64,000 nt of DNA from a bacterium (GTDB taxonomy: Bacteria > UBA8248): positions 183,311-247,310 of the forward strand of contig CBDBBI010000010.1 in assembly GCA_965202625.1 (NCBI GenBank). The letters run 5' to 3'. Numbering within the stretch: the stretch's first letter is position 1; every line of letters begins with the position of its first letter. A model generated the notes under the pieces. It was not told the DNA's origin. It saw only the letters and a program-made list of their open reading frames with translations, and did not search any database. Position numbers and translations under genes: made by a program. This document shows positions 11,243 to 63,998 of the stretch, one piece after another.

Positions 11243-11575
11243 TCAAAGATTGTCGAGGATTTTCTTTGAGCGGCCCTTCTCTAGGACTTCGCCGAAAGAA
11301 TCGCCCAGGTCGACGCCCAGCTGCTGGGCGCGTTTTTGCGCCCAAAGCCCGATGTTGCGGTCGTCCTTGTAGAAAGAGCCGTCTTGTGGTTGGGAGGGGT
11401 CGAACCCCTCAAGCCGCTGGGCTTCGGTCTGATGAGAGGAGAAGCGCGACATGATTTTTCGCAGCCTCCCTCTCCCGCAGGCCCGGCAGACGAGTTTTCG
11501 CCGATCCGATGGCCTCATCACCAAGTGGCCGGAGATAAAGCCGCATTCTTTGCATTCATACTCATATATCGGCAT
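11243..11575 (-). CDS. FmdB-family zinc-ribbon protein
   Basis: MPIYEYECKECG...CRACG: two CxxC pairs, the classic FmdB putative-regulatory zinc ribbon. Confidence 0.75.
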   Translation of the reverse strand: MPIYEYECKECGFISGHLVMRPSDRRKLVCRACGRGRLRKIMSRFSSHQTEAQRLEGFDPSQPQDGSFYKDDRNIGLWAQKRAQQLGVDLGDSFGEVLEKGRSKKILDNL

Positions 11576-12851: not shown

Positions 12852-12863
12852 GGCGGGTGCTTT

Positions 12864-13229: not shown

Positions 13230-13354
13230 GTCAACCTCCCGTGCGCACGTCTCATCCTAGCAAATCGCGTTATAATGGGAAAGATGAGAGGCTATCTTTC
13301 ATCCTAGTGGGAGAGAGCGCGGGTGCTCGCGCGTCCGGGCCGAGGAGAGCCTGA

Positions 13355-13978: not shown

Positions 13979-14014
13979 GGGTGGCGGCTCACCTGGGTTT
14001 TCACCTCTTGCCTG

Positions 14015-37384: not shown

Positions 37385-38362
37385 ATGAAGGCGATATGCG
37401 TGCATGAATTCGGCGGTCCTGGGGTAATGGTGCTTGAGGAGGCGGAAGAGCGGACTCCGGCGGCGGGAGAAATTCTGGTGCGGGTGCGCGCGGCGGGAGT
37501 GAACCCTGTGGACACGACCTTTCGATCGGGTGCGCATCCATTGTCAAGAAACCTTGCTCTGCCCTGGACGCCCGGCATTGACGCGGCGGGCGAGGTGATG
37601 GCCGTCGGGGAGGGCGTGAGCGGATTCTCCCCTGGCGAGAGGGTTTTTGGCGCCGCGACGAGCGGGAGTTACGCAGAACAGGCGCTTCTCAACCCGTTGC
37701 GCACGGCGAAGCTTCCCGAGGGCGTATCCTATGAGGAGGGCGCTTCCTTTCCGGTCGTTTTATACACGGCCTATTACGCCCTGATATACAAGGCGCGCAT
37801 CAGGGCGGGCGAGACGGTGCTCATCCACGCGGGGGCCGGCGGCGTGGGCTGCATGGCGATTCAAATCGCGAAGGCGGCCGGAGTTCGCGTCATCACGACG
37901 GTGAGCTCGGAGGAGAAGGCGGAATTTTGCCGAGGGTTTGGCGCCGACGTGATAGTGAATTACCGGGACGAGGATTTTGCGGAGCGTTGCCTGGCGGAGA
38001 CCGAGGGGCGCGGGGTGGACGCCGTCGTCGAGATGGTGGCGACGGATAATTTCGACAAGGACTGCCGGGCGGTCAAAAAATATGGCTGCATCGTCGTGCT
38101 GGGCGCCGGGACCGGCAAGAACCCGGTGGGTTCGGTGAACTATCCCCCCTTCTATTCCAAGGATATCGACGTCCGGGGGATGAGCCTGTTCAATTCGGAC
38201 CCCGTGTTTCCGTACATGGCGCGTCAGTTGGATCTCCTGCTCGCCGAGGGGAGAGTGCGCGCCGCCGTGGGGGAGACGATGCCGCTCGCTGAGGCCGCGC
38301 GCGCCCACGAGGCGCTGATGACGGGCGAGGTTTTCGGGAAAATCGTCTTGTCGGTTGACTAG
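37385..38362 (+). CDS. qor: NADPH:quinone oxidoreductase / zinc-type alcohol dehydrogenase-like (MDR family)
   Basis: MKAICVHEFGGPGVMVLEE... ; GAGGVGCMAIQIAK cofactor motif; 325 aa. Confidence 0.8.
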   Translation: MKAICVHEFGGPGVMVLEEAEERTPAAGEILVRVRAAGVNPVDTTFRSGAHPLSRNLALPWTPGIDAAGEVMAVGEGVSGFSPGERVFGAATSGSYAEQALLNPLRTAKLPEGVSYEEGASFPVVLYTAYYALIYKARIRAGETVLIHAGAGGVGCMAIQIAKAAGVRVITTVSSEEKAEFCRGFGADVIVNYRDEDFAERCLAETEGRGVDAVVEMVATDNFDKDCRAVKKYGCIVVLGAGTGKNPVGSVNYPPFYSKDIDVRGMSLFNSDPVFPYMARQLDLLLAEGRVRAAVGETMPLAEAARAHEALMTGEVFGKIVLSVD

Positions 38363-38464
38363 ACGAGGCGTCAAGCCCATCAAACGAGCCGGCGCGAATG
38401 GCGGCTTCGATTTGGTGCCCGGTGGGGGGCGTGCCCTTTGACGTGAAAATTTCGTAAGGAAATC

Positions 38465-38767
38465 ATGCAGAAAATCATCTGGGTGATCAAGAAAATCCTG
38501 CTGGTTTTGGTCGCTTGGGTTTTGGTCGCGGGAACTGTTGGAGCGATGATCTTCGGCGAAGTTCGTTCTTGGCCCAACTTGATCAGCGTCGCTGTGCCGA
38601 TTTTCAGTCGCGGTGGAGCGTGGAGACGGGTTGCGGCCGCCTGCGCCGGATTCGCAGCAGGAAACCTGACCGTCCTGGCTTTTCGCACGGCGGCAAAATT
38701 GTATGTTGTGGCCAAAGGGGGTTTCAGCACGCCCGCTTTCTACGACGTCATTATCCACCGCCGGTAA
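38465..38767 (+). CDS. hypothetical small membrane protein (100 aa)
   Basis: Two predicted TM helices; no recognised family. Confidence 0.3.
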   Translation: MQKIIWVIKKILLVLVAWVLVAGTVGAMIFGEVRSWPNLISVAVPIFSRGGAWRRVAAACAGFAAGNLTVLAFRTAAKLYVVAKGGFSTPAFYDVIIHRR

Positions 38768-38904
38768 CATAGCTGGCATTGGTGCTGCTGTCGTCGCTCC
38801 GATTGTGAGCTTGGGGGTGGTTTTGCTGGTTTTGTGGTGGAACCGGACCCCCCTGAAATCGTCGAAGTGATTCCCCATGTCCTGCGTGCGACTTGAAAAC
38901 CCTT

Positions 38905-39020
38905 GTAGCTGAGCAAAAATCATTGCGCATTTATGCGAAAATAATTCAGAATGCCCTGGAAAATGGCCGTTTTTCGGGCGTAAATGGCCGTGAAAAGGCC
39001 TTGAAAAGCCCTTCAAAGCG
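38905..39020. repeat. ~110-nt dispersed repeat, copy A (contains aaatggccg sub-motifs)
   Basis: ~75-80% identical to 61861..61978 by eye. Confidence 0.6.
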
Positions 39021-39250
39021 CGTCGTCGAGCGCGGCGGCGGCGAGGGTCTCCGCGTCTCCGGGCGCGGCGTCGATGGGGGATAATCGCCGCGTTCGTCAT
39101 TGCGAGCAGTCGCCTTTCCGCCCGTTCGGGTGAAAAAACACAATGGGCGTCATCGGGAAAAGTTAAGGGAGAGCGCACAGCACGCTCCGTAAGTGGGCAC
39201 TTGTAGTTCACAATGCGGATATCGGTAGCGAAGAGGATTGGGGGAAAGAC

Positions 39251-40423
39251 ATGGGCGCGTTGGACGGTATTCGCGTGCTGGACATGACGCACTACGTGGC
39301 GGGGCCGTTCTGCACGCTGATGATGGGAGATGCGGGCGCCGACGTCGTCAAACTCGAGCCGCCCGAGGGCGATCGCGTCCGGAATTTTCCCTCCTCGTTT
39401 GCGGGGGAAAGCAGGCTGTTCCTGGGTTTGAACCGCAGCAAGCGCAGCCTCGCCCTGAACCTGCGCGCGGCGCGCGGCAGGGAGATCGCCAGAAAACTGG
39501 CCTCGGATGCGGACGTGTTCGTGGAGGGCTATCGTCCGGGAGCGGTCGAGAGGCTGGGGCTGGGCGCCGACGCGTTGATGCGGGAGAACCCCCGGCTGAT
39601 TTATCTGTCCGTCTCCGCCTATGGACAGAGGGGTCCCTTGCGTGAGCGCAGGGGCATTGACCCCATCATCCAGACCACGGCGGGCATTCCGGCCGAGCAG
39701 GGGGCGGGCGGTCCTCCCCGACTCGTGCAGGGCTCTTTCGTGGATTACATTACCGGAGCACTGGCACTGGGCGCGGTGCTGATGGCGCTGTACGCCCGTG
39801 AGCGCACGGGCGAGGGGCAGCGCATCGACGCCTCGCTTCTGGGAGGCGCTGCGGCCGCCCAGTTTGGCCGTCTGATATGGGCGCCCGACTCTGAGCCTCT
39901 CTCGAGGGTGGAGGACGCCCTGAGCGACAGGATTTCCCGGATCTACGAGGTCGCCGACGGACATATCTACCTTTATCTGGACGTGGATGGTTTCTGGGAG
40001 AAATCCTGCGAGGTTCTCGGACTTCCCGAATTGCTTGAGAATGCCGCGTGGCAAGCTTTCAGAGGGCGGCATCGCGCGCGCGATGCCATTATCCCCCGCG
40101 TCCAGAAGGTTTTGCTCGGGGCGTCGGCCGAGGAATGGGTGCGGAAGTTCGAGGGCGTCGGCGTGCCCTGCGCGCGCGTGAGAAAGCCTGCGGACCTGTT
40201 CGAGGATGAACAGATGAAGGCGATGGGCTATCTCGCCCAGGCGGAGCATCCCGAATACGGCGTTTTGCGCATGGCGGGCGTTCCTGTGCAGCTCGACAAG
40301 ACGCCCTCGTCTGTGCGAAGGCCGCCGCCTCGCCTCGGGCAGCACACGGACGAAGTGCTCGGGGAGATGGGCCTCCCTCCCCGCGAGATATCCGCCTTGC
40401 GCGCCGAGGAGGTCGTTCGCTGA
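39251..40423 (+). CDS. CoA-transferase family III (CaiB/BaiF) protein
   Basis: GIRVLDMTHYVAGPFCTLMMGDAGADVVKLEPPEGD N-terminal signature of family III CoA transferases. Confidence 0.85.
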   Translation: MGALDGIRVLDMTHYVAGPFCTLMMGDAGADVVKLEPPEGDRVRNFPSSFAGESRLFLGLNRSKRSLALNLRAARGREIARKLASDADVFVEGYRPGAVERLGLGADALMRENPRLIYLSVSAYGQRGPLRERRGIDPIIQTTAGIPAEQGAGGPPRLVQGSFVDYITGALALGAVLMALYARERTGEGQRIDASLLGGAAAAQFGRLIWAPDSEPLSRVEDALSDRISRIYEVADGHIYLYLDVDGFWEKSCEVLGLPELLENAAWQAFRGRHRARDAIIPRVQKVLLGASAEEWVRKFEGVGVPCARVRKPADLFEDEQMKAMGYLAQAEHPEYGVLRMAGVPVQLDKTPSSVRRPPPRLGQHTDEVLGEMGLPPREISALRAEEVVR

Positions 40424-44833: not shown

Positions 44834-45097
44834 GAACTACCCTCCATGGTGAAGGCGTCTGCGCTCTCGGTGCAGGATAGCCCAGCCCTGAGCGCCGGCA
44901 AAACCTGGGTTTCATGGAGGGGTTTGCCTCGATTCGCGTCTGGCTGATAACTTGCCGCGCGACGGAGGATGCGATGGTTCCCCAAAGCGCGCGCGTTTGT
45001 CGCTTGCCGCATCATTTTCCGGCCTCGGCGAGCGCGGCGTTCGGGGCGTCCCTTCTGCGATGATGCAGAAAAGCCCCCACCCGAAGCGCGGGGAGAG

Positions 45098-45949
45098 ATG
45101 GTGATGTGCTCAGCCATACGGGCAGGTTTGGCGATTATCGCGCTGATGCTCGCCTCTTTTTCTCTTCCGGGTTTCGCATGGTCCGCTCCAGTCGAGGTGG
45201 ACCTGGAGCTCGTCCTGGCCGTGGACGTTTCCGGAAGCGTGGATGCGGAGGAGGGGAGGCTCCAGCGCATGGGCTACGTGAACGCCTTTCGCTCCGCATC
45301 CGTTTTGCGCGCCATTCGCTCGGGCAGGCGCAAACGCGTCGCGGTGGCTTACGTGGAATGGGCCGGCCATGATTTTCAGCACACTGTGGCGGGCTGGACG
45401 CAGATTCACGACGCGGCGAGCGCGGGGGCGTTCGCCGCGCTCCTCGCCCGGAAACCTGTGGGTGCGGGCCCCTACACCTCCATCAGCGGCGCGATAGAGT
45501 TCGCCTTGCCCATGTTCGATGACAACGGATTCACGGGCACGCGCCGCGTCATTGATATTTCCGGAGATGGGCCGAACAACAGCGGAGATGACGTGACGAC
45601 GGCGCGGGCGAAGGCCATACGGGCGGGGGTGACGATAAATGGACTCCCCATCGTGAACGACCGGCCCAGTCCCTGGGGGAGAGTGCCGATGGCGAACCTG
45701 GATTTGTATTACAGAAACTGCGTCATCGGGGGCAGGCGCTCCTTCATGGTGGTTGCGAGTGATTTTGCGTCTTTTGGACGCGCCATTCGCAGAAAACTGG
45801 TTCTGGAGATCGTGGGCGCGCCGGCGGAAAGGCCGCGCCAGGCCCATCGCGTGCGAGAAGCAGGGCGAATTCCTGTTCTCATATCCAGGACGTCCCCGCC
45901 GTGCGATGCGGGCGAGCGACGCCGCAGCAGCTGGCCGGAGGATTTTTAG
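45098..45949 (+). CDS. DUF1194 (vWA-like) domain protein with signal peptide
   Basis: LVLAVDVSGSVD MIDAS-like motif; signal peptide MCSAIRAGLAIIALMLASFSLPGFAWS; start and C-terminus uncertain. Confidence 0.6.
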   Translation: MVMCSAIRAGLAIIALMLASFSLPGFAWSAPVEVDLELVLAVDVSGSVDAEEGRLQRMGYVNAFRSASVLRAIRSGRRKRVAVAYVEWAGHDFQHTVAGWTQIHDAASAGAFAALLARKPVGAGPYTSISGAIEFALPMFDDNGFTGTRRVIDISGDGPNNSGDDVTTARAKAIRAGVTINGLPIVNDRPSPWGRVPMANLDLYYRNCVIGGRRSFMVVASDFASFGRAIRRKLVLEIVGAPAERPRQAHRVREAGRIPVLISRTSPPCDAGERRRSSWPEDF

Positions 45950-46057
45950 GATTTATCAGGCGTTTGTATTTTCTTTTCGTGTTCAGGCGCGGGCGGAACC
46001 TCTGTGCCGTCCGGTGGCGTTTGAACTGGTTTTCAAAACTGAAGGAGTGAAACTTCG

Positions 46058-47032
46058 ATGAAAGCGGTGCGCGTACATGAATTCAACATGGATGTCCCCA
46101 TGCGGGTGGATGAGGTGGAAGACCCGAAGCCAGCCCCTGGCGAGGTGTTGATAAAAACCGGCGCGGCCAGCGTCAATCCGGTGGACTTGGCCATTCGCGC
46201 CGCCAAACACCCCTACGCCAGGCTGGTTGTGCCGCCCTACGTTCCGGGCGCCGAGGCGGCGGGGGAAATCATCGCCTTGGGAGAGGGGGTGGAGGGCTGG
46301 CGTATCGGGCAGCGCGCGTATGGCCGCGCGGTGGGCGGCGGCTACGCCGAGAACGTGCGCCTCTCGGCGGACGCGGCGGCGGAGTTGCCCGACGCCTGCT
46401 CCTACGAGGAGGGAGCGTGCATCACCGTGGCGTTCTATACCGCCTGGAACGCGCTCGTCATCAAGGCCCAGGCGGGTCCCGGCGAGACGGTGCTGATTCA
46501 GGGCGGAGCGGGAGGCGTCGGCATGGCGGCGATTCAACTCGCCCGGCGCCTGGGGTGTCGCGTCTTCGCCACGGTGAGCTCTGATGAAAAGGCGAAATTT
46601 TGCAGGGATTTGGGCGCGGACGAGACGATCAACTACCGAGAGGAGGATTTCGCGGAACGCTGCATGGAGCTCACCGACGGGCGCGGCGTCGACGTCGTCG
46701 TCGAGCTTTGCGCGTGCGATAATTTTGACAAGGATCTGGACGCCATCCGCGTGGACGGAAGAATTATCGTCATAGGTACGGGAACGGGGAAGGGGCCGGG
46801 CGCGGAGTTTCGCGTTCCGGCCGTGATGACGAAAGACACCGTCGTTCTCGGTTTGGCCGTGGTGAACCTGTTTCCGAAGATGCCGGAGTTGGTGCGCCGC
46901 TTCACGCCTTTGCTGCGCGAGGGCGCGTTTCGCGTCCACGTCGATAGGACATGGGGGTTTGCGGAGGCGAACCAGGCACACGATCACGTTTTGGAGGGGC
47001 GGTTTCTGGGCAAGGTTGTCCTGACCCCATAA
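46058..47032 (+). CDS. qor: NADPH:quinone oxidoreductase (MDR family), paralog 2
   Basis: MKAVRVHEF..., GGAGGVGMAAIQLAR. Confidence 0.8.
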   Translation: MKAVRVHEFNMDVPMRVDEVEDPKPAPGEVLIKTGAASVNPVDLAIRAAKHPYARLVVPPYVPGAEAAGEIIALGEGVEGWRIGQRAYGRAVGGGYAENVRLSADAAAELPDACSYEEGACITVAFYTAWNALVIKAQAGPGETVLIQGGAGGVGMAAIQLARRLGCRVFATVSSDEKAKFCRDLGADETINYREEDFAERCMELTDGRGVDVVVELCACDNFDKDLDAIRVDGRIIVIGTGTGKGPGAEFRVPAVMTKDTVVLGLAVVNLFPKMPELVRRFTPLLREGAFRVHVDRTWGFAEANQAHDHVLEGRFLGKVVLTP

Positions 47033-47072
47033 GCGCCCACGGGCGAGGGTTGCGGGGCGAGAGGAGAAGGAA

Positions 47073-48047
47073 ATGAAAGCGATAAGGGTGACCCGGTTCG
47101 GGCTCGAGCATCCGATGGTTCTGGAAGACGTGGAGGAGCCGAAGCCGGGGCGCGGCGAGATTTTGGTGCGCGTAGCGGCCGCCGGAGTGAATCCTCTGGA
47201 AGTCGCCATACGCTCGGGAAAGCATCCGCGCTCCAGGGCGATGCGCCTCCCCTATACGTGCGGCACGGACGTGGCGGGCGAGGTGGAGGCGGTGGGCGAG
47301 GGCGTCGATGCGTTCTCTCCGGGAGATCGGGTATGGGGGCGCGCCCCGGCCGGCGCGTACGCCGAGAGAGGGCTGGTGCCCGCAGACGCGGCGGGAAGGC
47401 TGCCGGATTCCATGTCCCTCGCGCAGGGTGCCGCGCTGCCCATCCCCCTCCTCACGGCCTGGAACGCCTTGATTCTGAAGGGAGAGGCGACTCCGGGCGA
47501 TTGCGTGCTCGTGCAGGGGGGAGCGGGCGGCGTGGGCTATTTGTCCATTCAGCTCGCCCGCGAGGTGGGTTGTCGGGTGTTCGCCACCGTGAGCTCGAAG
47601 GAGAAGGCGGATTTTTGTCTCGCCGCCGGTGCCGAGGCGGCCATCAACTACAGGGAGGAGAACGTGCCCGAGCGCGTGATGGCACTCACTGCCGGACGGG
47701 GCGTCGATGTCGTCGTGGAGACTGCGGGCTGCGAGAATTTGCCCGCCGACCTCACGCTCAACGCCGTCAACGGCCGAATCGTCATCGTGGGAACGGGGAC
47801 GGGCAAGGGGCCGGAAGCGACGATTCCGCTGCCGGCGGCCATGGGACGAGACGCCAGAATTCTGGCGCTCTCATCGGGGAATCTGGGCCCGCTCGTTCCG
47901 GGCATCATCCGGCGTCTGTCCCCTTTGCTGGACAGAGGCGCCATCAACCCCCACGTCGGACGGGAGTTTCCGCTTGCGGAGGCGAACGACGCCCACGCGC
48001 TTTTGTTGAGCGGAAAGTTTCTGGGCAAACTGAACCTCGCACCCTAG
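47073..48047 (+). CDS. qor: NADPH:quinone oxidoreductase (MDR family), paralog 3
   Basis: MKAIRVTRFG..., GGAGGVGYLSIQLAR; tandem to paralog 2. Confidence 0.8.
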   Translation: MKAIRVTRFGLEHPMVLEDVEEPKPGRGEILVRVAAAGVNPLEVAIRSGKHPRSRAMRLPYTCGTDVAGEVEAVGEGVDAFSPGDRVWGRAPAGAYAERGLVPADAAGRLPDSMSLAQGAALPIPLLTAWNALILKGEATPGDCVLVQGGAGGVGYLSIQLAREVGCRVFATVSSKEKADFCLAAGAEAAINYREENVPERVMALTAGRGVDVVVETAGCENLPADLTLNAVNGRIVIVGTGTGKGPEATIPLPAAMGRDARILALSSGNLGPLVPGIIRRLSPLLDRGAINPHVGREFPLAEANDAHALLLSGKFLGKLNLAP

Positions 48048-48065
48048 CGCAAAACGAACCGCGCT

Positions 48066-48773
48066 TTGATGAGGGGAGAGAACGTGCGCTTGCTGAACGG
48101 CCATGAAATCGACGTCTGTTTGTTCGACGCCTACGGCACCTTGTTTGACGTGTCCGCCGCCGCCGAGGAGAAGGAATCCGCTCTGGGCGATCGGTGGCGG
48201 GTGCTCTCCTCGCTTTGGCGGACGAAGCAGATCGAATACACGTGGCTGAGGAGCCTGATGGGGTGTCACGCGGATTTCTGGCGGGTGACGGGCGACGCGC
48301 TGGATTTCGCCCTTGATACTCTGGGAATGGAGGAGCCGGAGCTTCGAGACGAACTCATGGCGCTTTACAAGCGATTGCGCGCGTATCCCGAGGTGAGAGG
48401 CGCACTCGGGAAGCTCCGGAGGAGCCGGATGCGGGCGGCGATTCTCTCCAACGGCTCTCCCGAAATGCTCGACAGCGCGGTGAGAAGCGCCGATATCGGG
48501 GAGTATCTGGAAGCGGTCCTCTCCGCCGAGGAGGTGGGGGTGTTCAAGACGCACCCCTCCGTCTATCAACTGGCGGTGGACAGGCTCGGCGTTCCCGCCG
48601 GCAGAATCTGCTTTTTCTCCTCCAACGCCTGGGACGTGGCGGGCGCGTCGCATTTCGGGTATCGCGTGGTCTGGGTCAATCGATTCGCACAGAAAAAAGA
48701 GCGCGTCCCGCACGAGATCGACGCGGAAATCGGCTCGCTTGAGGAGCTGGAAGGCGTGCTGGCGTATGCGTGA
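48066..48773 (+). CDS. HAD-superfamily hydrolase, 2-haloacid dehalogenase type II-like
   Basis: CLFDAYGTLFDV (DxYGT motif I), ...SNG..., ...W/D motif IV. Confidence 0.75.
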   Translation: MMRGENVRLLNGHEIDVCLFDAYGTLFDVSAAAEEKESALGDRWRVLSSLWRTKQIEYTWLRSLMGCHADFWRVTGDALDFALDTLGMEEPELRDELMALYKRLRAYPEVRGALGKLRRSRMRAAILSNGSPEMLDSAVRSADIGEYLEAVLSAEEVGVFKTHPSVYQLAVDRLGVPAGRICFFSSNAWDVAGASHFGYRVVWVNRFAQKKERVPHEIDAEIGSLEELEGVLAYA

Positions 48774-48794
48774 AGCCCCCGCATCTCTCGCGGC

Positions 48795-49379
48795 TTACGA
48801 GACGTTCAGCGCACCTCTGAGGGTTTGAATTCTCCCCGCGTGATCGGAATGGCTGACGGGCGGAAGTTTTTCCCTGTTCGTGACGGGAAGCGCGATGAAG
48901 TGCGGTCCCGCCTCGGCGAGGAGCCGGGGGAGGGTTTTGCGAAACGCCCCGAGAGAATCCACCCGCTCCACCTTGCCCTTTCCCGTCGCGCCGCCGCCCT
49001 CAAACCCCGAGGCGCGCGCCAGCGCGACGAAATCTGCCCGGGGGGGGAGCCTTTGCCCGCCCACCATTTCGTAGCTCCTGTTCTCCAGCAGAAAGACGAG
49101 CAGGTTTTCGGGTCCATAGCGCGCCAGCGTCACGAGCGAGCCGAGACTCATCAGCATCCCCCCGTCCCCTTTCCAGACGATGACCTTTCTCTCGGGTCGC
49201 GCGAGGGCGAGGCCCAGGCCGAAGTCGGCGGCGTGCCCCATGCCGAACGCCAGAAAGTCGAAATCGAGGTCGCTTTGCGAGACCAGGGGCCACTGCAGGG
49301 TGGCGGTCATGGTCATCACCACGATCTCTGTCGTTCTGTGCTCCGCCACGGCCTGAAACAGCCCCATCCGCTCTATCAA
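48795..49379 (-). CDS. TPP-dependent decarboxylase beta subunit (sulfopyruvate/phosphonopyruvate decarboxylase-like, ComE-like)
   Basis: GMGHAADFGLGLALARPERKVIVWKGDGGMLMSLGSL TPP-binding GDG motif; C-terminal TPP domain only. Confidence 0.7.
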   Translation of the reverse strand: MIERMGLFQAVAEHRTTEIVVMTMTATLQWPLVSQSDLDFDFLAFGMGHAADFGLGLALARPERKVIVWKGDGGMLMSLGSLVTLARYGPENLLVFLLENRSYEMVGGQRLPPRADFVALARASGFEGGGATGKGKVERVDSLGAFRKTLPRLLAEAGPHFIALPVTNREKLPPVSHSDHAGRIQTLRGALNVS

Positions 49380-49397
49380 GACGCTCCGCCTCTGTGG

Positions 49398-49907
49398 TCA
49401 GGGTTGGAATGCGTAGCCGGTGAGGACGGCCGCCGGATAGGAGGAGGCCGCCGCCGCTTCGTCCATCAGGTCGAGCGTGCCCAGGTCTTCGTCCGACATG
49501 AGGTGCCAGGTCGGTATCCCCCACGCCTTGAGAAGCGGCTCTGTGAAGGGGTAGGCCGAATCTATCGGCAGCTTGCCCGCCATCGCCCCGCCGTATCCCC
49601 GCCAGCCGACCACCATGCGCAAGGGTACCCTGGGCCCTGCACCGCAGCCTCTCAAGGCGTCTCCCGCCTCCATCAGCCCCGTGTTCTGAATCACGAGCAG
49701 CGGTTTTTGCCCCCCCGTCCACAGCCCGGCGGCGATGGCGATCGACTCCCCCTCCCGGCAGGGGGTGATGAGGTCGATTTCCGGGGCACTCTCCAGACGT
49801 TCGTAGAGGAGCCTGCTCTCGCTGTCCGGAATCATGAGGACGTGCGTGAATCCGAGTTCGTGAAATTTCCGCACCGTGTGGGTCGCACTCGCACCTTTTG
49901 CGTCCAA
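49398..49907 (-). CDS. TPP-dependent decarboxylase alpha subunit (ComD-like; pyrimidine-binding domain)
   Basis: N-terminal TPP (PYR) domain only (..LMIPDSESRLLYE..CREGESIAIAAG..); paired with the beta subunit 18 nt downstream. Confidence 0.7.
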   Translation of the reverse strand: MDAKGASATHTVRKFHELGFTHVLMIPDSESRLLYERLESAPEIDLITPCREGESIAIAAGLWTGGQKPLLVIQNTGLMEAGDALRGCGAGPRVPLRMVVGWRGYGGAMAGKLPIDSAYPFTEPLLKAWGIPTWHLMSDEDLGTLDLMDEAAAASSYPAAVLTGYAFQP

Positions 49908-50113
49908 AGGGTTTTCCTCTCCGCCCCTTGATGAGAGTTCCAGGTTCTTTCATATTCAGGCAGCCATCTTCGGCCGCGCGCGTCGCCAAAGTCAAGGGTT
50001 TCCGGCGAGACGATGCGCGAAGCGAGAATGATAGGCGCGCGCGGCTGCGTTTTGGTTTTTCCCGTGCGGTGTGCGGAGAAGGAGCCACCTTGAGAAGACG
50101 ACCTGTCATCGCG

Positions 50114-51124
50114 ATGACCATGGGGGATCCTGCGGGAGTGGGCCCCGAGGTGTGCCTGAAGGCGGCTCAGGAGGTGCGCGTTCAAAAAAAATGTGTCCCC
50201 GTCATCGTCGGCGACGCGGCGGTTCTTCGCAAACACGCGCGCAGAATGGGAGTTCGGCCCCGGCTCCAGTCGCTCGCAGAGGAGAAGCCGCCCCCTCCGG
50301 AGTGCGAATCCTCGTCCATTTGCGTGATCGACCTCAAAAACGTCGCTCCCGCGCATCGGGTGTTCGGAGAGGTTCTTCCCGAACTCGGCAGGGCGTCGGG
50401 CGAATACGTCGAAAGAGCCGTCTCGATGGTGCGCACCGGATGGGCGGACGCCGTTGCGACCGCACCGATAAGCAAGGAATCCTTGCAGGCCGGAGGTTAT
50501 GACTATCCCGGGCATACCGAAATGCTCGCCGCCCTGTGCGGCGGGGGACGGCCCGTCATGATGCTGGCCCACCGCAGAATACGCATCGCCCACCTATCCA
50601 CGCATTGCCCTCTTCGGACGGCGGTTCAGCTCGTGAAGAGAAAAAGAATCGTATGCGTGGGGCGGATTTTCGACGAGGCGTTGTGCCTGCTCGACCGCAA
50701 GAGGCCCAGAATCGGGGTTGCGGGCCTGAATCCCCACGCGGGCGAATCCGGCTTGTTCGGAACCGAGGAGGGGGAGGAAATCGCGCCGGCGGTTTCGGAT
50801 TTGCGGGCGATGGGCATCGACGCGCATGGGCCCGAGCCGCCGGATACGATATTCGCGAAATTGCGAGGGGGGCACTACGCTGGCGTCGTGGCCATGTATC
50901 ACGACCAGGGACACATTCCGGGGAAGCTGGCGTGTTTTCGCTTCAACGCCCGGGGGGAGGGGAGCGTTCGGGGCGTCAACGTCACGCTGGGCCTGCCCAT
51001 CATCAGAACGTCGGCGGAACACGGAACGGGGTTTCCCATCGCAGGGCGGGGGGTCGCCGACCCCTCCAGCATGATCGACGCGCTCCTCCTCGCCGCCCGA
51101 ATGGTCAAAAATGGCGGGAAATGA
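50114..51124 (+). CDS. PdxA-family 4-hydroxythreonine-4-phosphate dehydrogenase-like (PdxA2-type) oxidoreductase
   Basis: Start at MTMGDPAGVGPEV (canonical PdxA N-terminus GDPAGIGPE); ...AGLNPHAGE... and YHDQGHIP motifs. Confidence 0.8.
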   Translation: MTMGDPAGVGPEVCLKAAQEVRVQKKCVPVIVGDAAVLRKHARRMGVRPRLQSLAEEKPPPPECESSSICVIDLKNVAPAHRVFGEVLPELGRASGEYVERAVSMVRTGWADAVATAPISKESLQAGGYDYPGHTEMLAALCGGGRPVMMLAHRRIRIAHLSTHCPLRTAVQLVKRKRIVCVGRIFDEALCLLDRKRPRIGVAGLNPHAGESGLFGTEEGEEIAPAVSDLRAMGIDAHGPEPPDTIFAKLRGGHYAGVVAMYHDQGHIPGKLACFRFNARGEGSVRGVNVTLGLPIIRTSAEHGTGFPIAGRGVADPSSMIDALLLAARMVKNGGK

Positions 51125-51387
51125 ACAGTTTGTGGTGCCGCTCCGCCAGAGCCGTTTCGCTTTTATGCTTCGGTATCTGAGAAATTTTCTGCGCACGACG
51201 CCGTTGTCTGCCCCCACGACGCCCTGTGCGGGCTGAGACGCAGGGCGGCGTGGGCGAGTAGGTTGGCAGGAGATGCGCGGCCGGCTTCGGCGACGCCAAC
51301 GGTTTATAAAATCGCACTGGCTGGCCTGATCCGTGATTGACGGTTCTGGCCGTTGTGGCCACTATCCCGTCAAAATGGAGATAGCCC

Positions 51388-51527
51388 ATGAAAGCGATTT
51401 CCGCCCGGCGCGCGCCCGTTGTGGTCGAAAAGCACGGTCGGCCGTTCGTCGTGGTCATGGCCGTCAAGGAACGTGAAAATCTGACGGGGAACATCGTCCT
51501 TCCCTCACAAGATAAGGAGCACGAACC

Positions 51528-51530
<3 letters not shown>
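51388..51530 (+). other. possible remnant of a Phd/YefM-like antitoxin (very short, runs into hsdM without its own stop)
   Basis: MKAISARRAPVVVEKHGRPFVVVMAVKERENL resembles the antitoxin pattern ...ISAS.AR..f..l...V..Ge.VvItRhGkPvAVLvs.eEYE.L with the central part missing. Confidence 0.2.
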
Positions 51531-53091
<1,561 letters not shown>

Positions 53092-53099
<8 letters not shown>

Positions 53100-54378
53100 T
53101 ATCTGGCCGAGAATACCTTTAGATTCTGTTGTCCGCTTCCAAGAAGGTCCGGGCATCCTTGCGAAAGACTTTCATCCAGACGGCGTTCCGCTTGTTAGGC
53201 TTGCGGGGCTTGGCGGGTACGAAGTAACGCTCAACAAGTGTAACTATCTTGATCCGTCTTTCGTAGCGAAGAAGTGGGATCACTTCAGGCTTAAAAAGGG
53301 GGACATACTTATTTCAACGAGTGCATCATTTGGAAGACCTGCGGTTGTGGGTGCAGAAGCCGAAGGCGCAATATTTTACACGGGAATAATCCGCTTTCGT
53401 TCTATGTCTAGTGAGCTAAACGAGGGCTATTTGAAAAGCTTCCTCGGGTCTCGCGCGTTTATGCTTCAGGCCGAAGCACAGGCGTCAGGAAGTGTAATTA
53501 GTCATTTTGGACCTTCGCATTTGCGCCGGATGGAAATCCCACTGCCGCCATTGAAAGAGCAGCAAAATATCGCGTACGTACATTCCACCCTCGACGACAA
53601 GATCGAACTGAACCGGTGGATGAACGAGACGCTGGAGGCGATGGCGCGGGCGATTTTCAAGGACTGGTTCGTGGATTTCGGCCCCACCCGCGCCAGGATG
53701 GAAGGCCGCGAACCCTGCCTCGCCCCCGAAATCTGGAACCTGTTCCCCGACAGGCTGGATGCGGAAGGCAAGCCGGAGGGGTGGGAGCAAGGAACCCTTG
53801 TGGATATTGCGGATTCCCCGAGGCGAGGCGTTAGCCCAGCCGACGTTGCCGAGGACACGCCCTACATCGGCCTAGAGCATATGCCGCGCCGTTCAATCGC
53901 ACTCTCGGAGTGGGAAGGCGCGGGGAAAGTTACGAGCAACAAGTCGATCTTTAAAAAGGGGGAATTCCTGTTCGGGAAACTGCGGCCCTACTTCCACAAG
54001 GTCGGATTTGCGCTATTGGACGGCATTTGTTCGACTGACATCGTTGTTGTGATCCCGCGAGCCCCGAACTGGGGAGCGTTTACTCTCGCCTGCCTATCTA
54101 CGGATGAATTCGTGGATTACACGGATCAGACGTCGACCGGCACGAAGATGCCGCGCACGGGCTGGAATACAATGGGGCAATACGAGGTTTGCATTCCATC
54201 TGAGCAGATTGCCCATGCTTTTCAGAGCATCGCGCAGACGCTGTTTGACCGTGTCAGCACGAACATTCATGAATCCCGCACCCTCGCCCAAACCCGCGAC
54301 TTTATTCTTCCGAAACTGATGTCCGGCGAAATCCGGCTCCGTGAAGCCGAGAAGATCGCAGGGGAGGCAGTTGCATGA
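53092..54378 (+). CDS. hsdS: Type I restriction-modification system specificity subunit
   Basis: 428 aa with two target-recognition domains and conserved central/terminal repeat (...[11 protein letters not shown]...; ...[11 protein letters not shown]...); 8-nt overlap with hsdM. Confidence 0.85.
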
Positions 54379-55172
54379 AGGTAGCGGCAGGAGAACCGGT
54401 GTACCATGAAGGCAGCGCCCCGTGTTCCGGGCTTGGCCTGAAGTGGTCGGGCGACGAGCTTGATGCTGCGATGAATGGCCGCGTGGCTGCCGTCCTGTTT
54501 GATGACGCAGGCAAGGCCGACATCGAAGGCATTCTGACCGGCCTTCCCGAGACCGACTTTGAGCAGGAAGGGCTTCGCCGTATTCTCTCCGCTCCCGATG
54601 ATATGGAGGACTGGCGCGTCGGAGAGGCGATCGCCGAGGCCTATCTCACTGATCACCGCGATTGCTGTTTCCCGTGGCCTGCCGGACGAGACGAGCGCAA
54701 GCGAGGCTCCAGTCTGCCTGGTGCGGATCTTGTCGGCTTCCATGCCGACGAGCAGGGCGATTGCCTGGCATTTGGTGAAGTCAAGACGTCCTCCGAAGCC
54801 AGGTATCCACCGGGGAGCATGTATGGCCGGACAGGGCTCAAGCAACAACTTGGGGACTTGCGAGACAGGGTTTCCATACGCGATGACCTCGTCTGGTATC
54901 TCTTCCATCGTGCCAAGGGGGCCGATTGGTTTGCGCGGTTCATGAAGGCGACAAAGCGCTATCTGGCCAACAAATCGGACGTGCGGCTTTACGGGTTTCT
55001 TGTCCGTGATGTTCAACCGCAGAAAGATGACGTGCGAGTCCGTGTGGAAAAGCTCGGAAAGGACTGCCCGGAGGGAACGAAAGTTGAACTTCTTGCGCTG
55101 TATCTTCCGAAGGGCCGCATTAAAGGAATCGGCGCCGCCGCTGTGAAGACAAGGACAGGAGCGGGATCATGA
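54375..55172 (+). CDS. PD-(D/E)xK-like nuclease-fold protein (candidate HamA/DUF1837-like component)
   Basis: 265 aa; PGADLVGF (D118) ... LAFGEVKTS (E135-x-K137) restriction-endonuclease-like motif; ATGA start/stop overlaps with hsdS upstream and the helicase downstream. Confidence 0.45.
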   Translation: MKVAAGEPVYHEGSAPCSGLGLKWSGDELDAAMNGRVAAVLFDDAGKADIEGILTGLPETDFEQEGLRRILSAPDDMEDWRVGEAIAEAYLTDHRDCCFPWPAGRDERKRGSSLPGADLVGFHADEQGDCLAFGEVKTSSEARYPPGSMYGRTGLKQQLGDLRDRVSIRDDLVWYLFHRAKGADWFARFMKATKRYLANKSDVRLYGFLVRDVQPQKDDVRVRVEKLGKDCPEGTKVELLALYLPKGRIKGIGAAAVKTRTGAGS

Positions 55173-58100
55173 CTCTGTCCATGAAATCTCTTGACGATCT
55201 CAGAGAACATTGGGCTGTCAGTGCAATCGGCGCGGAGGATATCGCGCGGGCCGAAAGGCTCGTAAACGAAAATCTCGCCCGTCGAGCGGTTGGCCAGCAG
55301 ATAGCCTTTTCGTTCTCGCCAGGTGCGAGTGACGACGCCTTTCTGGAGCGCGTTGCGCTGGCCTTTGAAATGGCGGCTATTGAGGGCCTGGACGAGCTGA
55401 GCCGTCCTTCCGGCGAGAACGCGGCATTGCGCGATCAGGCGACTGCCGCGTCATTCCGCGCTTTTGATATTCGCCGTTTGCTGCCGGTCCCGACCGAAAC
55501 GCATGACCGGCTTTTCTTTGTCCTGCAACTTTCCGCCCTTGCCTATTGCGGGGATCGCTGGTCGGACCTTCGCCGCTGGTACAAGGAAAACGCCGGGGCA
55601 CTGGCGGCTCCGAGCGTTGCCGAAAGCCTGTGGGACCGCCGCCTTCTGTACCGTTTGTTCCATTGCTGGGTCCGGTTGTTCCGGAAGGAGGGCTGGGATG
55701 ATCTTGACCGGATCAGTGAGATCATCGACGGACTGCGCGACGATCAAAAGATATATGAGAAAGAGCGACTTAAGAACGGTTCGCACGCGGCGAATCGGGC
55801 AATCGCCCTGCGGCTTGCGGCGCTTTATCACTGGGCGAAGAGCACCGAGCTTGTTGCGCAATACATGTTGCAGGGGCAGCCGGCAAACCCGTTTGGCTTG
55901 ATTGACAAGCACTTCGACGGGGCCATCAAGGCAGCGACGGCCTCAGGCGACGCGCAGCACGAGATTATTCTGCGCTGGTTACATGCAGCCGCGCGGATCA
56001 TGATCACGAACTCGCTTTGGTGGGCGACGCGTACCGTCAATTCACGCACAACGCGTTTTGTCCACTCCTTGACGCACCGCAAACACCAGGCGATGTTCGA
56101 GCTCCTGCCGCCTCAGCGAGCGGCCCTTCTTGAGCAGGGGCTGCTCGATCAGGCCAAGACGGCAATCGTGGTCGATATGCCGACCTCGGGAGGAAAAACC
56201 CTCCTCGCGCAATTCCGCATCCTTCAGGCATTGAATCAGTTCAGCGCCGATGGTGGCTGGGTCGCATATGTTGCGCCCACACGCGCCTTGTCCGCCCAGA
56301 TCACCCGGCGGCTGCGAAAAGACTTCGAGCCGCTCGGCGTCCGGGTCGAGCAACTAACGGCCGCGGTCGAGGTGGACGCCTTTGAGGAGGAGCTGCTGGC
56401 GAACAAGGAGCAGCCATTCACGGCCACGGTCCGGGTGGACGTCTTTGAGGAGGAGCAGCCGGCGGACAACGATCCGCCATTCGACATTCTCGTGGCTACA
56501 CCCGAGAAGCTGTCCCTCGTCATCCGCAACAAGAAGGTCGAGAACCGGCCGCTTGCCCTCGTTGTCATGGACGAAGCACACAATCTCGAAACGAAAGACA
56601 GAGGGCTCCGCATCGAGTTGTTGCTCGCGACGGTGAAGAGGGATTGTCCGAAGGCGAACTTCCTTCTCCTCATGCCTTATGTAGAAGGAGCGGAATCCGT
56701 AGCGCGGTGGCTGGCACATGATATAAACGCCGGCCAGGCGATCAGCCTTGGAACGACGCCCTGGAAACCCAATGAACGAATTATCGGCCTTTATAGTGCC
56801 GTTGCGGATGACAGCCAGCGCGCTGGATGGCATCTCAAATTCGAGACTTTAACTGCTACTTCGAAAGCTATGCAGCTTCACGGCACTCACCGCGTTGGCG
56901 GTGTGAAGCCCATCAATGTTCCCAAAAGCAAGGTGCTTATCAAAGGCCGGCAGGAAGGTTTCGGCCTTCAGACGGCGGCCATTGCGACCGTCATGTCCGC
57001 CCGTGGCACGAGCGTCGCCATAGCCAACCATATTCCCACCGTGTGGAACATGGCCGCCAAGGCGGCAGAGTGCTTGTCGGATTTCGATACGATTCCGACC
57101 GACATCAAGCTCGTTCAGGATTTTCTGCGCACCGAGATCAGCCCCGACTTCCCGCTGATTGCAATGCTGGACAAGGGAGTCGGTGTCCACCATGCCGGTC
57201 TTTCCGATGACGTGCGCGGCCTTATGGAGTGGCTTGCCGAAACCGGAAGCCTGCGGATGCTTTGTGCGACCACCACGATTGCGCAGGGGATCAATTTTCC
57301 GGTTTCCTCCGTTTTCCTGCAAACGCACAAATATCGCTACGGGCAGGAAATGTCGCCGCGCGAGTTCTGGAACCTGGCCGGTCGCGCAGGCCGTATCGAT
57401 CATGACAGCGTGGGTGTCATTGGCATTGCGGAAGGTTCGAGTCGAGATTCTCTCATCAAGTTCGTCAGCCGCAACACGGGTGCTCTCGTCTCGCGCCTTG
57501 TCTCGTTGCTGGACGATCTTGCCAAGCAAGGCGAATTGGCGAATCTGTCGGAAGTCCTTTGTCAGGAACAATGGGAGGATTTCCGCTGTTACATTGCGCA
57601 TCTTTGGGCGGAGAAAAAGAACCTCGACGCCGTTCTCTCTGAATCTGATCAGCTCCTTCGCCAGACGTTCGGCTATACGTCTCTGCGAAACGACCCCGCG
57701 CAGCGGGAGAAGGCTGACGCATTGCTGCTTGCGGCCCACGCCTACGCGCGCGAACTTGCCAAGAAGCCTGGCGTCGCCGAACTTGCGGACTCGACGGGCT
57801 TCTCACCGGAAGGCGTGGGTAAAGCGATGAGCGAACTTAACCAGCTTGAGACCAAACTCACGCCATCGGATTGGGCTCCGGAGAGTCTTTTCGGAAAGGG
57901 CGGCAAAATCGCCGATTTGTATGGCGTCATGTTGAAAGTGCCGCAACTCCAGAAGCAACTTGAGGAGATTGGCGGCCAGGGTTTTGATCGCACCCGGATT
58001 TCCGATATCACGCGCGACTGGGTGAATGGCAAGGGAATTGACGCCATAGCCAGGGAGTACTTCAGCCGGGAAACGGACGACGAAGGGAGAACGGCTGCGA

Positions 58101-58504
58101 TTACGGATGCCTGCCGCGCCATATATCGCGCGATTGTCAATAATGGAACCTGGGGTGTTTCCGCGCTGAGCCGCATTTCCGGTATCGACTTTGACAGTCT
58201 GCCGGAGGCCGAGCGTCGCAGGATCAATGCGCTTCCCGCGATGATTTATCACGGCGTCCGCACGGAAGATGCGGTTTTGATGCGTATGAATGCCGCGCCA
58301 CGCAGCGCGTCTGTAAACCTAGGGAATTTGTATCGCGAGACAATCGGCGAAGGCGATGGTCGCTATTCCGTCGGCCAAGCCCGCCAATTCCTGAAAGACC
58401 TGAGCGATCGCGACTGGCACCGCGCCCGCCCGGAAAGCGCCGCTCTCTCTGGCGACGGATACAAGCGCGTCTGGGAAGTGCTTTCCGGGGAGAGAAGCAC
58501 ATGA
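55169..58504 (+). CDS. SF2 DExH-box (Ski2/Lhr-like) helicase, 1111 aa (candidate HamB-like component)
   Basis: Motif [10 protein letters not shown] (~56176-56199), motif [10 protein letters not shown] (DEAH, ~56564-56584), motif VI-like [13 protein letters not shown]; long C-terminal helical domain; contains a 63-nt in-frame tandem duplication (56357-56482). Confidence 0.7.
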
Positions 58505-58538
58505 CGGCATTTGCCGAAAACGTCAAGGAGGCCGTGTA

Positions 58539-61697
<3,159 letters not shown>

Positions 61698-61860
61698 TGA
61701 CCAGAAAAGACGAGACATGAGAAGCTCCGTTCCATGCGGACTCTCTTCCAAAAATTTCTGGGACGCAGGGTGTCCCGGTTCCTTGACGCGGCGGGCCGGG
61801 CGGTATGCGCGGAACCCCCTCGGGTCGCATACGCCCTGGACAGCCTGGTCGGCTGTAGCC

Positions 61861-61978
61861 AGACAAAATAATTGCGAATTTGCACAAAAATAACCCGGAA
61901 TGCCTTGTGAAAAAGACCGTTTTTCGGGGCCTAAACGGCTTGTGAAATGGCCGTGCAAGGGTGTTGCAAAGGTCGCGC
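61861..61978. repeat. ~110-nt dispersed repeat, copy B
   Basis: Aligns with 38905..39020 (aaaataa..gaatgcc.tg.aaaa.g.ccgtttttcggg...aaatggccgtg...caaag..cgcg). Confidence 0.6.
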
Positions 61979-62124
61979 AAGGCAGAATCCGCAAGCGTTG
62001 ATTGCGGCGAGGGCGTCCGCAGCCTTTGATATCTCCAAGGAAAATTTGGTTTGGTTGCGGGGGCAGGATGTGAACCTGTGCCTTCAGGTTTGGGGATGGG
62101 GGTCTTGCGAGAAGACGCGGCCCC

Positions 62125-62880
62125 TCAAGCGCGGCAGATGGTGAGGAGGTGCACCGCGTTGGCCCCCGCTTTTTTGAGCTCCCGCGCACACGCCGAGGCG
62201 GTCGAGCCGGTCGTGACCACGTCGTCGATCAAGATGCACGTGGCGGATGCGAGTTTTTCACGCACCCCTCCGGAGCGAACCCTGAATACCCCGCGCATGT
62301 TTCGCCGCCTCTCCCGCCCGGACAATCCCGTTTGCGAGCGGCCTGGCTTCGCGCGTTCCAGCAAGCGCGCGTGCGGCTTGCCCAGGTGCTCCGCCGTCTG
62401 GAGGGAGAGGAGCAGTGCCTGATCGAAGCCCCGGGTTCTCCAGCGCGCGCGGTCGATCGGCACGTGCGTGAGGATGACGTTCGGCGTTTCTTCACCGACG
62501 CCGAATTCGCTTGTCGCCAGATCGGCGAGATGGGGAGCGAGTGCGCGCGCCAGCTTCGTGACGCCCCCGAACTTGAGGAGATGCACCAACTCTCGCAAAG
62601 AACCCTCAAAGGCGCCGATGGAGCGGACCTTGTCATAGTGAAGGTCGTCTTGTTGGCACGGGGCGCAGACGTGCGCGGGAAAATGGGACAGGGCGGCCTG
62701 GGAGTGAAAGGGTCTGCCGCATCTGGGGCACCAGGGCGGCTTGAAGCATTCGAAGGCGTCCGCGCAAGGGGTGCATATCGCATCGGTACCGCCGATTTCC
62801 ATCAGATTCAGGCACAAGGGGCACTTTCTGGGGAGGAGAAAGTCCGTCGCCGCGCGAAGGAGAGAACGCAGGTGGCGCAT
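62125..62880 (-). CDS. comF: ComF-family protein (ComFC-like phosphoribosyltransferase domain)
   Basis: N-terminal CPLC...CTPC / CPRCG...CAPC zinc fingers; C-terminal ILIDDVVTTGST PRTase motif. Confidence 0.75.
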   Translation of the reverse strand: MRHLRSLLRAATDFLLPRKCPLCLNLMEIGGTDAICTPCADAFECFKPPWCPRCGRPFHSQAALSHFPAHVCAPCQQDDLHYDKVRSIGAFEGSLRELVHLLKFGGVTKLARALAPHLADLATSEFGVGEETPNVILTHVPIDRARWRTRGFDQALLLSLQTAEHLGKPHARLLERAKPGRSQTGLSGRERRRNMRGVFRVRSGGVREKLASATCILIDDVVTTGSTASACARELKKAGANAVHLLTICRA

Positions 62881-62948
62881 AGGCTTTTCGCTTCAGGTGA
62901 AAGGGGAGACACTCTTGTCCGAGCGCCGCGGGCGTTCTTTGCGGGACG

Positions 62949-63998
62949 TCAGGATTTTCTTCTCAACTGCACCCTTTTGCTGCCCGCCCCCTCGCTTCTC
63001 GCCTCGCCCCGGCGGCGGTGGCGAATGAGTTCTGCGACGATGGCGACCCCGATCTCCCCCGGCGTATCGGCGCCAATGTCCAGGCCGATGGGTGCGTGGA
63101 CGCGCTTGATGAGTTCTCCCCGATCGTGGCCCTTCTCTTCGAGGTGGCGATAGGTGAGCAGTACCTTGCTCTTTGAACCTATCATTCCGATGTAGCGCGC
63201 GTTCGTCTGCATCGCCCATTCGAGGACGACCTCGTCGTTCGCGTGTCCCCGGGTGATGATGGCCATGTAGTCTGCCTCGTCCACCGGAATTTTCTCGAAA
63301 ATTTCGGGAAAATCCCCCACGTAGAACGCCTCCGCCATCGGAAAGCGCTCCGCGTTGGCGAACGATGGTCTGTCCTCTACGACCGCGACCCTGAAGCCGG
63401 CGAGATAGGCCGCCTGCGCGACGCAGAAAGACACGTGCCCGCCGCCGAAGACGTAGACGAGCGGCTGGCCGGATATGGGTTCGACGAAAATTTCTGTGGC
63501 TTCTCCGGGCGCGGACCTCTTTCGCCCCGCGCGCGCCGCCTCCGTGTGGAAATGCAGGAGAGAGGGGCTGCCCTGGCGAATGATTTGCGTGCTCTCCGCC
63601 CAAATCTCTGCCGAATAGTGGGGAATTTCGCCCACGGCGCTGCCGTCGCGCCTGAAAAGCATTTTTCTGGCCTCCGGCGTCGGAATGTCGAGCGCGCCCG
63701 GCTGGACGATGGTCGCCAACGCCGCGCTGCCGCCCTGGTTTCTGATGGCGTTGATCGCATCGAGCAGTTCCGGATGAAACACCCGAAACGGCTCCACCAG
63801 TATCTCCACGACGCCGCCGCAGATGTGTCCGCTGTCCTCCGCCTCCTGCTGGGTGAGGTCGAAGGCGCACTTCTCAGGCTCGCCCGTCTCCAGGACGCTC
63901 ATGGCGCTTTCCCAGACCTCCGCCTCCAGGCAGCCGCCCCCGACGGTACCCTCCGTGCTGCCGTCCTCGCGCACGAGCATTTTCGCATCCCCGCTCAT
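62949..63998 (-). CDS. xdhC: XdhC/CoxI-family molybdenum-cofactor insertion accessory protein (N-terminus probably beyond the window edge)
   Basis: TVGGGCLEAEV and YVFGGGHVSFCVAQAA Rossmann-like motif of XdhC; the ORF reaches position 63998 of a 64000-nt window. Confidence 0.7.
   Translation of the reverse strand: MSGDAKMLVREDGSTEGTVGGGCLEAEVWESAMSVLETGEPEKCAFDLTQQEAEDSGHICGGVVEILVEPFRVFHPELLDAINAIRNQGGSAALATIVQPGALDIPTPEARKMLFRRDGSAVGEIPHYSAEIWAESTQIIRQGSPSLLHFHTEAARAGRKRSAPGEATEIFVEPISGQPLVYVFGGGHVSFCVAQAAYLAGFRVAVVEDRPSFANAERFPMAEAFYVGDFPEIFEKIPVDEADYMAIITRGHANDEVVLEWAMQTNARYIGMIGSKSKVLLTYRHLEEKGHDRGELIKRVHAPIGLDIGADTPGEIGVAIVAELIRHRRRGEARSEGAGSKRVQLRRKS

Follow-up and report, generated by a model that had tools for sequence, protein, structure and literature searches.

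Type I restriction–modification (R-M) operons that host additional defence genes are a described phenomenon, as the preliminary description of this locus had stated. Here we ask what is encoded by two genes lodged between hsdS and hsdR of such an operon in a 64,000-nucleotide (nt) stretch of bacterial DNA (lineage UBA8248; assembly GCA_965202625.1, contig CBDBBI010000010.1, positions 183,311–247,310), referred to throughout as the window. The first gene, termed A, is a 265-amino-acid (aa) open reading frame (ORF) at 54375–55172 of the forward strand, and the second, termed B, is an 1111-aa helicase ORF at 55169–58504 of the same strand. We consider it probable that A-B is a Hachiman-type two-gene anti-phage module, equivalent to the phage defence candidate PDC-M23, which is carried as cargo in the hsdS–hsdR slot of an intact Type I operon and shares its transcript.

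Relationship of the gene pair to PDC-M23 and Hachiman

The PADLOC check proposed in the preliminary description assigned both proteins to PDC-M23. A matched the PDC-M23A model PDLC04529 at 5.3e-99, with residues 1–257 aligned to positions 1–258 of 265, and B matched the PDC-M23B model PDLC04531 with 1423 bits, with residues 13–1108 aligned to positions 4–1060 of 1060. PDC-M23A models were also matched by all 88 of a diverse set of A-family members. The A model, the B model and the adjacency of the two genes, which are all the criteria that can be tested, place the pair in PDC-M23 on sequence grounds. Phage defence candidates (PDC) were predicted by "guilt-by-embedding", from cassettes nested in BREX, DISARM and Type I R-M systems (Payne, Hughes, Fineran and Jackson 2024, bioRxiv 10.1101/2024.01.29.577857; PADLOC-DB v2). 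Table S8 of that preprint lists cassette CAS_00096 (FAM_02460>>FAM_00699, count 161) with the entry "Assign as candidate PDC-M23"; the same table merges some cassettes into known systems (e.g. 'Incorporate into Gabija model') and does not merge PDC-M23 with Hachiman. The window pair has the gene order and embedding context of PDC-M23 as well as the near end-to-end model matches. Nothing material differs, and the features peculiar to the window copy are a 21-aa duplication in the helicase and a 34-nt gap between B and hsdR. Since PDC-M23 is already catalogued, and from the same kind of embedding, the pair is not new, and the novelty implied in the preliminary description was not borne out. What is new is modest, namely statistics on the use of the hsdS–hsdR slot and an explicit link between PDC-M23 and Hachiman, which is made neither by the source preprint nor by the current Pfam and PADLOC HamA models.

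Clustering of the A family gives 1,537 clusters at 90% identity and 489 representatives at 50%. Among 88 aligned members, which are 27–52% identical to the window protein, E84, G116, G121, K137, S139 and Q158 were invariant, and D118 and E135 were at least 90% conserved. A is thereby predicted to carry a complete E...D...ExK restriction-endonuclease-type site (E84, D118, E135 and K137). The residues singled out in the preliminary description, D118, E135 and K137 of A and DEAH 468–471 of B, are all present and are conserved across the family down to 27% identity. Long A-family proteins (e.g. P0154, 684 aa) were considered as HsdS–A fusions; they are without Pfam domains, and the idea was dropped.

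The structure of A was predicted using AlphaFold2 (predicted local distance difference test (pLDDT) 83, predicted template modelling score (pTM) 0.85) and two methods were used to search the PDB for similar structures. In Foldseek, two HamA chains were the only matches below E 1e-3 (8.7e-7, probability 1.00, template modelling scores 0.56/0.57, whole length), and every match other than HamA lay above E 0.06. HamA was the only PDB structure to match A over its whole length. As modelled, A has the HamA fold, which combines a restriction-endonuclease core and HamA-specific insertions, from end to end, and the structure prediction that the preliminary description had suggested came out in favour of its proposal. 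The A-family hidden Markov model (HMM) likewise had HamA as its best PDB match (E 0.066). Its GEalA/GaDlvG/GEVK motifs aligned to GEIFA/GEDVIG/TEAK of HamA, the last of which contains the E138/K140 pair mutated in 8vxy. An hhalign comparison of the A family with HamA gave a probability of 76% (E 2e-5) over the same motifs, using a profile of fragments of at most 160 aa from a search seeded with a HamA fragment, which covers the N-terminal two-thirds of HamA. When the 88 family members were scanned one by one, 10 matched Pfam HamA PF08878 (best 3.4e-4), the sole Pfam family matched by more than one member; one PADLOC HamA1 model (PDLC00159, best 2.5e-6) was matched by 16 of the 88 and another by 10. 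The structure comparison, the profile alignment of the motifs and the HamA matches of family members together indicate that A is truly homologous to HamA, but remotely so and beyond the reach of current DUF1837 models, and is not a canonical HamA. In addition, the loop at residues 105–116 of A (RDERKRGSSLPG) is strongly conserved, has low pLDDT and aligns with HamA 102–117, a loop described as contacting HamB (Tuck et al., PMC12278908).

B has intact helicase motifs I (GGKT 341–344), Ia, Ib, II (DEAH 468–471), HHAGL, IV, V and VI (AGRAGR), and is predicted to be a Ski2/Hel308-like superfamily 2 helicase in which all ATPase motifs are preserved. Its best NCBIfam matches were archaeal Hel308-type helicases (1e-34; 120 bits against a cut-off of 887 bits). 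PDB sequence matches were Slh1, ASCC3, HamB 8vx9_B (3e-23) and Hel308, in agreement with the family profile, and Lhr 5v9x_A was a weak match. Among PADLOC models of known defence systems, the HamB1 models were best (1e-47, 160 bits), ahead of SngC and BrxH, a result that upholds the comparison with HamB made in the preliminary description. The HamB model matches are partial; they start at the RecA core, run in the C-terminal direction and leave the N-terminal domain uncovered. The AlphaFold model of B was poor overall (pLDDT 57, pTM 0.36), and its residues 1–288 were all-helical at pLDDT ~60–88. The helicase cores of HamB and B start at an equivalent offset (299 against 294). In the account of the HamAB structure, the N-terminal alpha-helical domain of HamB docks HamA and distinguishes HamB from other Ski2-like helicases, which are described as being without it (PMC12278908). 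The B gene of the window also contains an in-frame tandem duplication of 63 nt at 56357–56482 of the forward strand (Tandem Repeats Finder; period 63, 2.0 copies, 84% matches). It adds 21 aa (residues 412–432) between motifs Ia and Ib, and this insertion is absent from all 29 aligned B homologues, which are 1087–1101 aa long.

Hachiman HamAB of E. coli ECOR31 (PDB 8vx9/8vxy; Tuck et al. Cell 2024, PMC12278908) is described as a two-gene system with the nuclease first and the helicase second, the order found in A-B. The nucleases have the HamA fold in common, with the D-ExK site at closely corresponding positions, E135/K137 in A and E138/K140 in HamA. The helicases are both Ski2/Hel308-like, are of similar length (1111 aa for B and 1174 aa for HamB) and have an N-terminal region of ~295 aa ahead of motif I, helical in HamB and predicted to be so in B. 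In contrast, A is only 11–13% identical to HamA and lies below the Pfam DUF1837 and PADLOC HamA thresholds, and B matches HamB models from the RecA core to the C-terminus only. The clade of the window also sits mostly in Type I R-M operons, whereas a keyword search of two Hachiman papers returned no mention of such a context. AbpAB of E. coli (PDB 8zue), which is considered a variant of Hachiman, differs in its nuclease: AbpA has 531 aa and, as described in PMC12278908, carries an additional Cap4-like nuclease domain at its N-terminus and a HamA-like domain that is catalytically dead, whereas A is a single-domain protein of 265 aa with an intact site. Hel308/Hjm, Slh1, ASCC3 and Brr2 have the core motifs and RecA1/RecA2 architecture of B and, unlike B, are not paired with a HamA-fold nuclease. 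The pair therefore agrees with Hachiman in fold, catalytic motif, helicase class and gene order, and departs from it in the conventional DUF1837 HMM criterion. We regard PDC-M23 as a Hachiman lineage that has diverged deeply, and not as a canonical member.

By analogy with HamAB, A-B is most likely a DNA-damage-sensing abortive-infection module that is co-expressed with the R-M system. Following the mechanism described for the E. coli proteins (Tuck et al. 2024, PMC12278908), B would bind A via its N-terminal helical domain and A would be kept inactive while B surveys intact double-stranded DNA. Infection would lead to accumulation of damaged DNA or free 3' ends, upon which ATP-driven activity of B would free or activate A. 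The freed nuclease would then degrade DNA indiscriminately and abort the infection. Co-transcription with hsdMSR could provide layered defence, with restriction acting first and the Hachiman-like module second, against phages that escape or inhibit restriction. Defence-type contexts recur around the pair, which shares its slot with TIR, Schlafen and PRTase–reverse transcriptase genes and in one operon is accompanied by PDC-M02B.

Several observations weigh against a Hachiman assignment. The window protein A gave no match at E ≤ 0.01 to any Pfam family, including HamA/DUF1837, or to the PADLOC HamA models; nor was there any NCBIfam match, and a direct sequence search of the PDB returned nothing at E ≤ 10. 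Since no DUF1837/HamA model is reached, A is not a formal member of Hachiman by the usual HMM criterion, an outcome that the preliminary description had itself set as refuting, and this part of the earlier proposal of a HamA/HamB pair did not hold, while the fold, the motifs and the best match of B to HamB did. The sequence link between A and HamA is sub-threshold or apparent at the family level only, and the hhalign probability is moderate and derives from HamA fragments. Formation of an A-B complex and the signal that would activate it are proposed purely by analogy. A literature search found no paper that names PDC-M23 or tests it experimentally, so that even its anti-phage function is a prediction.

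Organisation of the operon and of related loci

The five genes of the operon lie on the forward strand and include a complete, full-length Type I set according to Pfam, NCBIfam and PADLOC. hsdM (51528–53099, 523 aa) matched Pfam N6_Mtase (5.5e-106) and HsdM_N (1.7e-24) and PADLOC MTase_I (3e-204). hsdS (53092–54378, 428 aa) matched Pfam Methylase_S (1.4e-15) and, over its full length, PADLOC Specificity_I (4.9e-83). hsdR (58539–61697, 1052 aa) matched TIGR00348 hsdR (5.1e-183, 610 bits) and, again over its full length, PADLOC REase_I (1146.7 bits), with Pfam domains HSDR_N, SWI2_SNF2, T1R_D3-like and T1RH-like_C. Reading of the junctions and the ORF table reproduced the chain given in the preliminary description exactly to the base. 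hsdM and hsdS overlap by 8 nt, the hsdS stop and the A start share an ATGA at 54375–54378, and the A stop and the B start share another at 55169–55172. The helicase TGA at 58502–58504 is followed by a 34-nt gap, which contains an AAGGAGG ribosome-binding site (58525–58531) 7 nt before the hsdR ATG. No sigma-70-like promoter was found inside 50500–62500, and terminator-like hairpins in the operon region were fewer than in shuffled sequence, so that a single transcript for the five genes fits. hsdM-hsdS-A-B-hsdR thus has the layout of one translationally coupled operon, and the overlaps, together with the lack of an internal promoter in this interval and the few terminator-like sites, support the co-transcription that had been proposed.

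To place the pair among its relatives, the five window proteins were mapped onto related loci. The survey covered 80 metagenomic and several genomic loci in which A is 51–80% identical to the window protein, with 82 related loci measured; the single-protein scan of genome contigs comprised one locus. B adjoined A on the downstream side in all 77 loci that were long enough, and the A stop and B start overlapped by 4 nt in 72 of them. A 4-nt overlap between the stop of the upstream ORF and the A start was found in 32 of 42 loci, and the distance from the B stop to the hsdR start was -8 to +13 nt in 20 of 23, compared with the +34 nt gap of the window. The recurrence of these overlaps across related loci suggests that the operon layout is not due to chance.

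Of 34 loci that were informative on both sides, 24 (~70%) had the pair between hsd genes, usually right after hsdS and before hsdR. The host systems belonged to several Type I families, with HsdM 27–76% and HsdR 27–83% identical to those of the window. In two further loci the pair followed a complete Type I operon. One of these (L023, 5073–14070) has the order R-M-S-A-B, with A overlapping the hsdS stop, and the other (L002, from Bryobacterales; 5333–6481 and 10001–14064) has the order M-S-(PDC-M02B)-R-A-B, with PDC-M02B occupying the hsdS–hsdR slot. The remaining eight had no hsd genes within 2–10 kb. Among these, neighbours were housekeeping genes in L005, a resolvase and a PRTase-CE plus reverse transcriptase pair in L010, a WYL regulator in L029, IS110 in L032, an SMC-like ATPase and a metallophosphatase in L041, and imuA-imuB-dnaE2 in L069. 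Four distant A homologues (30–34% identity) were each followed by a 1050–1064-aa DEAD helicase with a 4–11-nt overlap, and none of the three with informative flanks was inside an R-M operon; all three were free-standing. The conserved unit is the A-B pair, as in Hachiman; the window's clade tends strongly towards Type I embedding but does not require it, since ~30% of the informative close relatives and the three distant branches with informative flanks stand outside the R-M slot. The composite defence operon envisaged in the preliminary description is therefore present here, with coupled genes and the pair embedded between hsdS and hsdR, but the pair as such is not tied to R-M.

Other genes occupy Type I operons in a similar manner. 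The slot holding the pair also contained a TIR-domain protein in L057 (8212–9282) and a Schlafen/AlbA_2-HATPase_c_4-Fic-like_C protein in L028 (6191–7669), and L074 had a YhcG/DUF1016 PD-(D/E)xK nuclease gene between hsdM and hsdS (7487–8599). Genes for a PRTase-CE/wHTH protein and a reverse transcriptase were seen directly after A-B in L010 (14150–16717, free-standing) and in L068 (7782–10346, before hsdR), and these two modules may travel together.

The closest named relative of the window operon is that of Luteithermobacter gelatinilyticus. The pair is distributed patchily across phyla, with 60–86% identity among an alphaproteobacterium (Luteithermobacter), Bryobacterales, Methylocaldum and many metagenomes, and this distribution points to horizontal transfer. 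Relatives of A were found in neither plasmid nor phage collections, and IMG/VR contained one; carriage of A-B as phage or plasmid cargo was considered and dropped. Base composition differs within the operon, as the GC content at third codon positions (GC3) is 0.84 for hsdM and 0.82 for hsdR and only 0.62 for hsdS, 0.63 for A and 0.68 for B. The contrast has the same direction in most related operons (L001, L002, L006, L012, L054, L057 and others). Its recurrence suggests that the hsdS-A-B segment has a history distinct from that of hsdM and hsdR, or has been swapped as a block.

Alternative readings and significance of the embedded pair

The near-universal coupling of the pair is repeated in Type I families that share ~30% identity, and for this reason the hsdS-A-B-hsdR arrangement could represent a functional circuit and not just a convenient location. 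In such a circuit the trigger of a HamAB-like complex would be either a product of the Type I enzyme, such as DNA ends made by HsdR or a stalled translocation event, or inhibition of the enzyme by phage. This is possible, though we consider it doubtful. If true, it would be the first case of a restriction system with a Hachiman-type sensor wired to it, and the unity of hsdS-A-B in GC3 (0.62–0.68 against 0.82–0.84) could mean that the specificity subunit and the module are exchanged together.

PrrC and RloC, tRNA anticodon nucleases of the ABC-ATPase-like kind, occupy the same position between hsd genes and show by precedent that a Type I operon can house a second layer of defence, although the proteins inserted here are unrelated to them: PrrC/RloC-type models were absent from the three PADLOC matches of A, the best 25 of the 35 PADLOC matches of B, and the Pfam matches. 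The pair could act as a guard in the style of PrrC, wired physically or functionally to the Type I complex and latent while HsdMSR is active, with a phage anti-restriction protein or HsdR-made DNA ends as the trigger. The tight, conserved junctions on both sides of the pair would fit this reading, as would the use of the same slot in Type I families with HsdR 27–38% identical to that of the window and the position of the pair directly after hsdS even where the order is R-M-S (L023). PrrC itself is cited as being almost exclusively embedded in Type I R-M operons. A-B, however, lacks nearby hsd genes at the eight free-standing loci, follows a complete operon at two more, and is free-standing in all three distant homologues with informative flanks (of four examined). 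Unrelated cargo (TIR, Schlafen, PRTase–reverse transcriptase and PDC-M02B) is also found in the same slot, which suggests that the hsdS–hsdR position may be just a permissive site for integration and expression. We consider a guard role unlikely.

Even less likely is a role as a restriction accessory, in which A-B would process or degrade fragments produced by Type I cleavage, or resolve stalled translocating enzymes, with no abortive infection. Co-transcription between hsdS and hsdR is compatible with this, and B resembles Hel308, a DNA-repair type of helicase. However, the pair also stands free in defence and mobile contexts without R-M genes, and the fold of the nuclease is specifically that of HamA. 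To our knowledge, the great majority of Type I systems function without a nuclease–helicase pair of this kind. That the pair is a housekeeping DNA-repair helicase–nuclease (Hel308/Lhr-like) located here by chance and without a defence role is hardly credible: the Hel308-type NCBIfam matches, far under their cut-offs, and the weak Lhr match of B speak for it, but the patchy distribution, the GC3 of A and B well under that of hsdM and hsdR, and neighbours that comprise R-M genes, transposases, a resolvase, a WYL regulator, reverse transcriptase and TIR genes speak against it.

With the Hachiman-type module as the preferred reading, the operon can be annotated as Type I R-M plus PDC-M23, with PDC-M23 readable as a deeply divergent Hachiman lineage. 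The candidate thereby gains a concrete mechanism that could be falsified through specific residues, namely E135 and K137 of A and D468/E469 of B. As DUF1837 models miss the nuclease of this large family, counts of Hachiman-type systems are probably too low. Because one clade so strongly prefers the hsdS–hsdR slot, it also offers a tractable system in which to ask if an embedded defence and its host R-M system cooperate. Neither the pair nor its setting overturns current understanding, and a specialist is unlikely to be surprised by the find, yet the find is solid and suggests a testable mechanism.

Surroundings of the operon

Housekeeping genes flank the operon: pdxA (49898–51124) on one side and, on the other, a comF-like PRTase gene and xdhC on the opposite strand. 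A Pfam scan of its immediate neighbours (44969–51124 and 62125–63998) revealed no integrase, and no tRNA turned up anywhere in the window. Upstream of the operon, four ORFs of considerable size had no Pfam or PADLOC match: 37760–40345 and 45983–47209 on the reverse strand, and 47258–48106 and 48825–49931 on the forward strand. One of these, of 282 aa, has a low GC3 of 0.51, and some of the four may be mis-called frames in GC-rich sequence. Further upstream, an 874-aa ORF at 15251–17875 of the forward strand has a GC3 of 0.42, compared with ~0.75 in its neighbours. It encodes an unannotated N-terminal domain of ~330 aa, an NB-ARC/NACHT STAND NTPase core (aa 329–539, 6.8e-7) and TPR repeats, and has no PADLOC match. 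These features suggest a candidate immune sensor, Avs/bNACHT-like and acquired horizontally.

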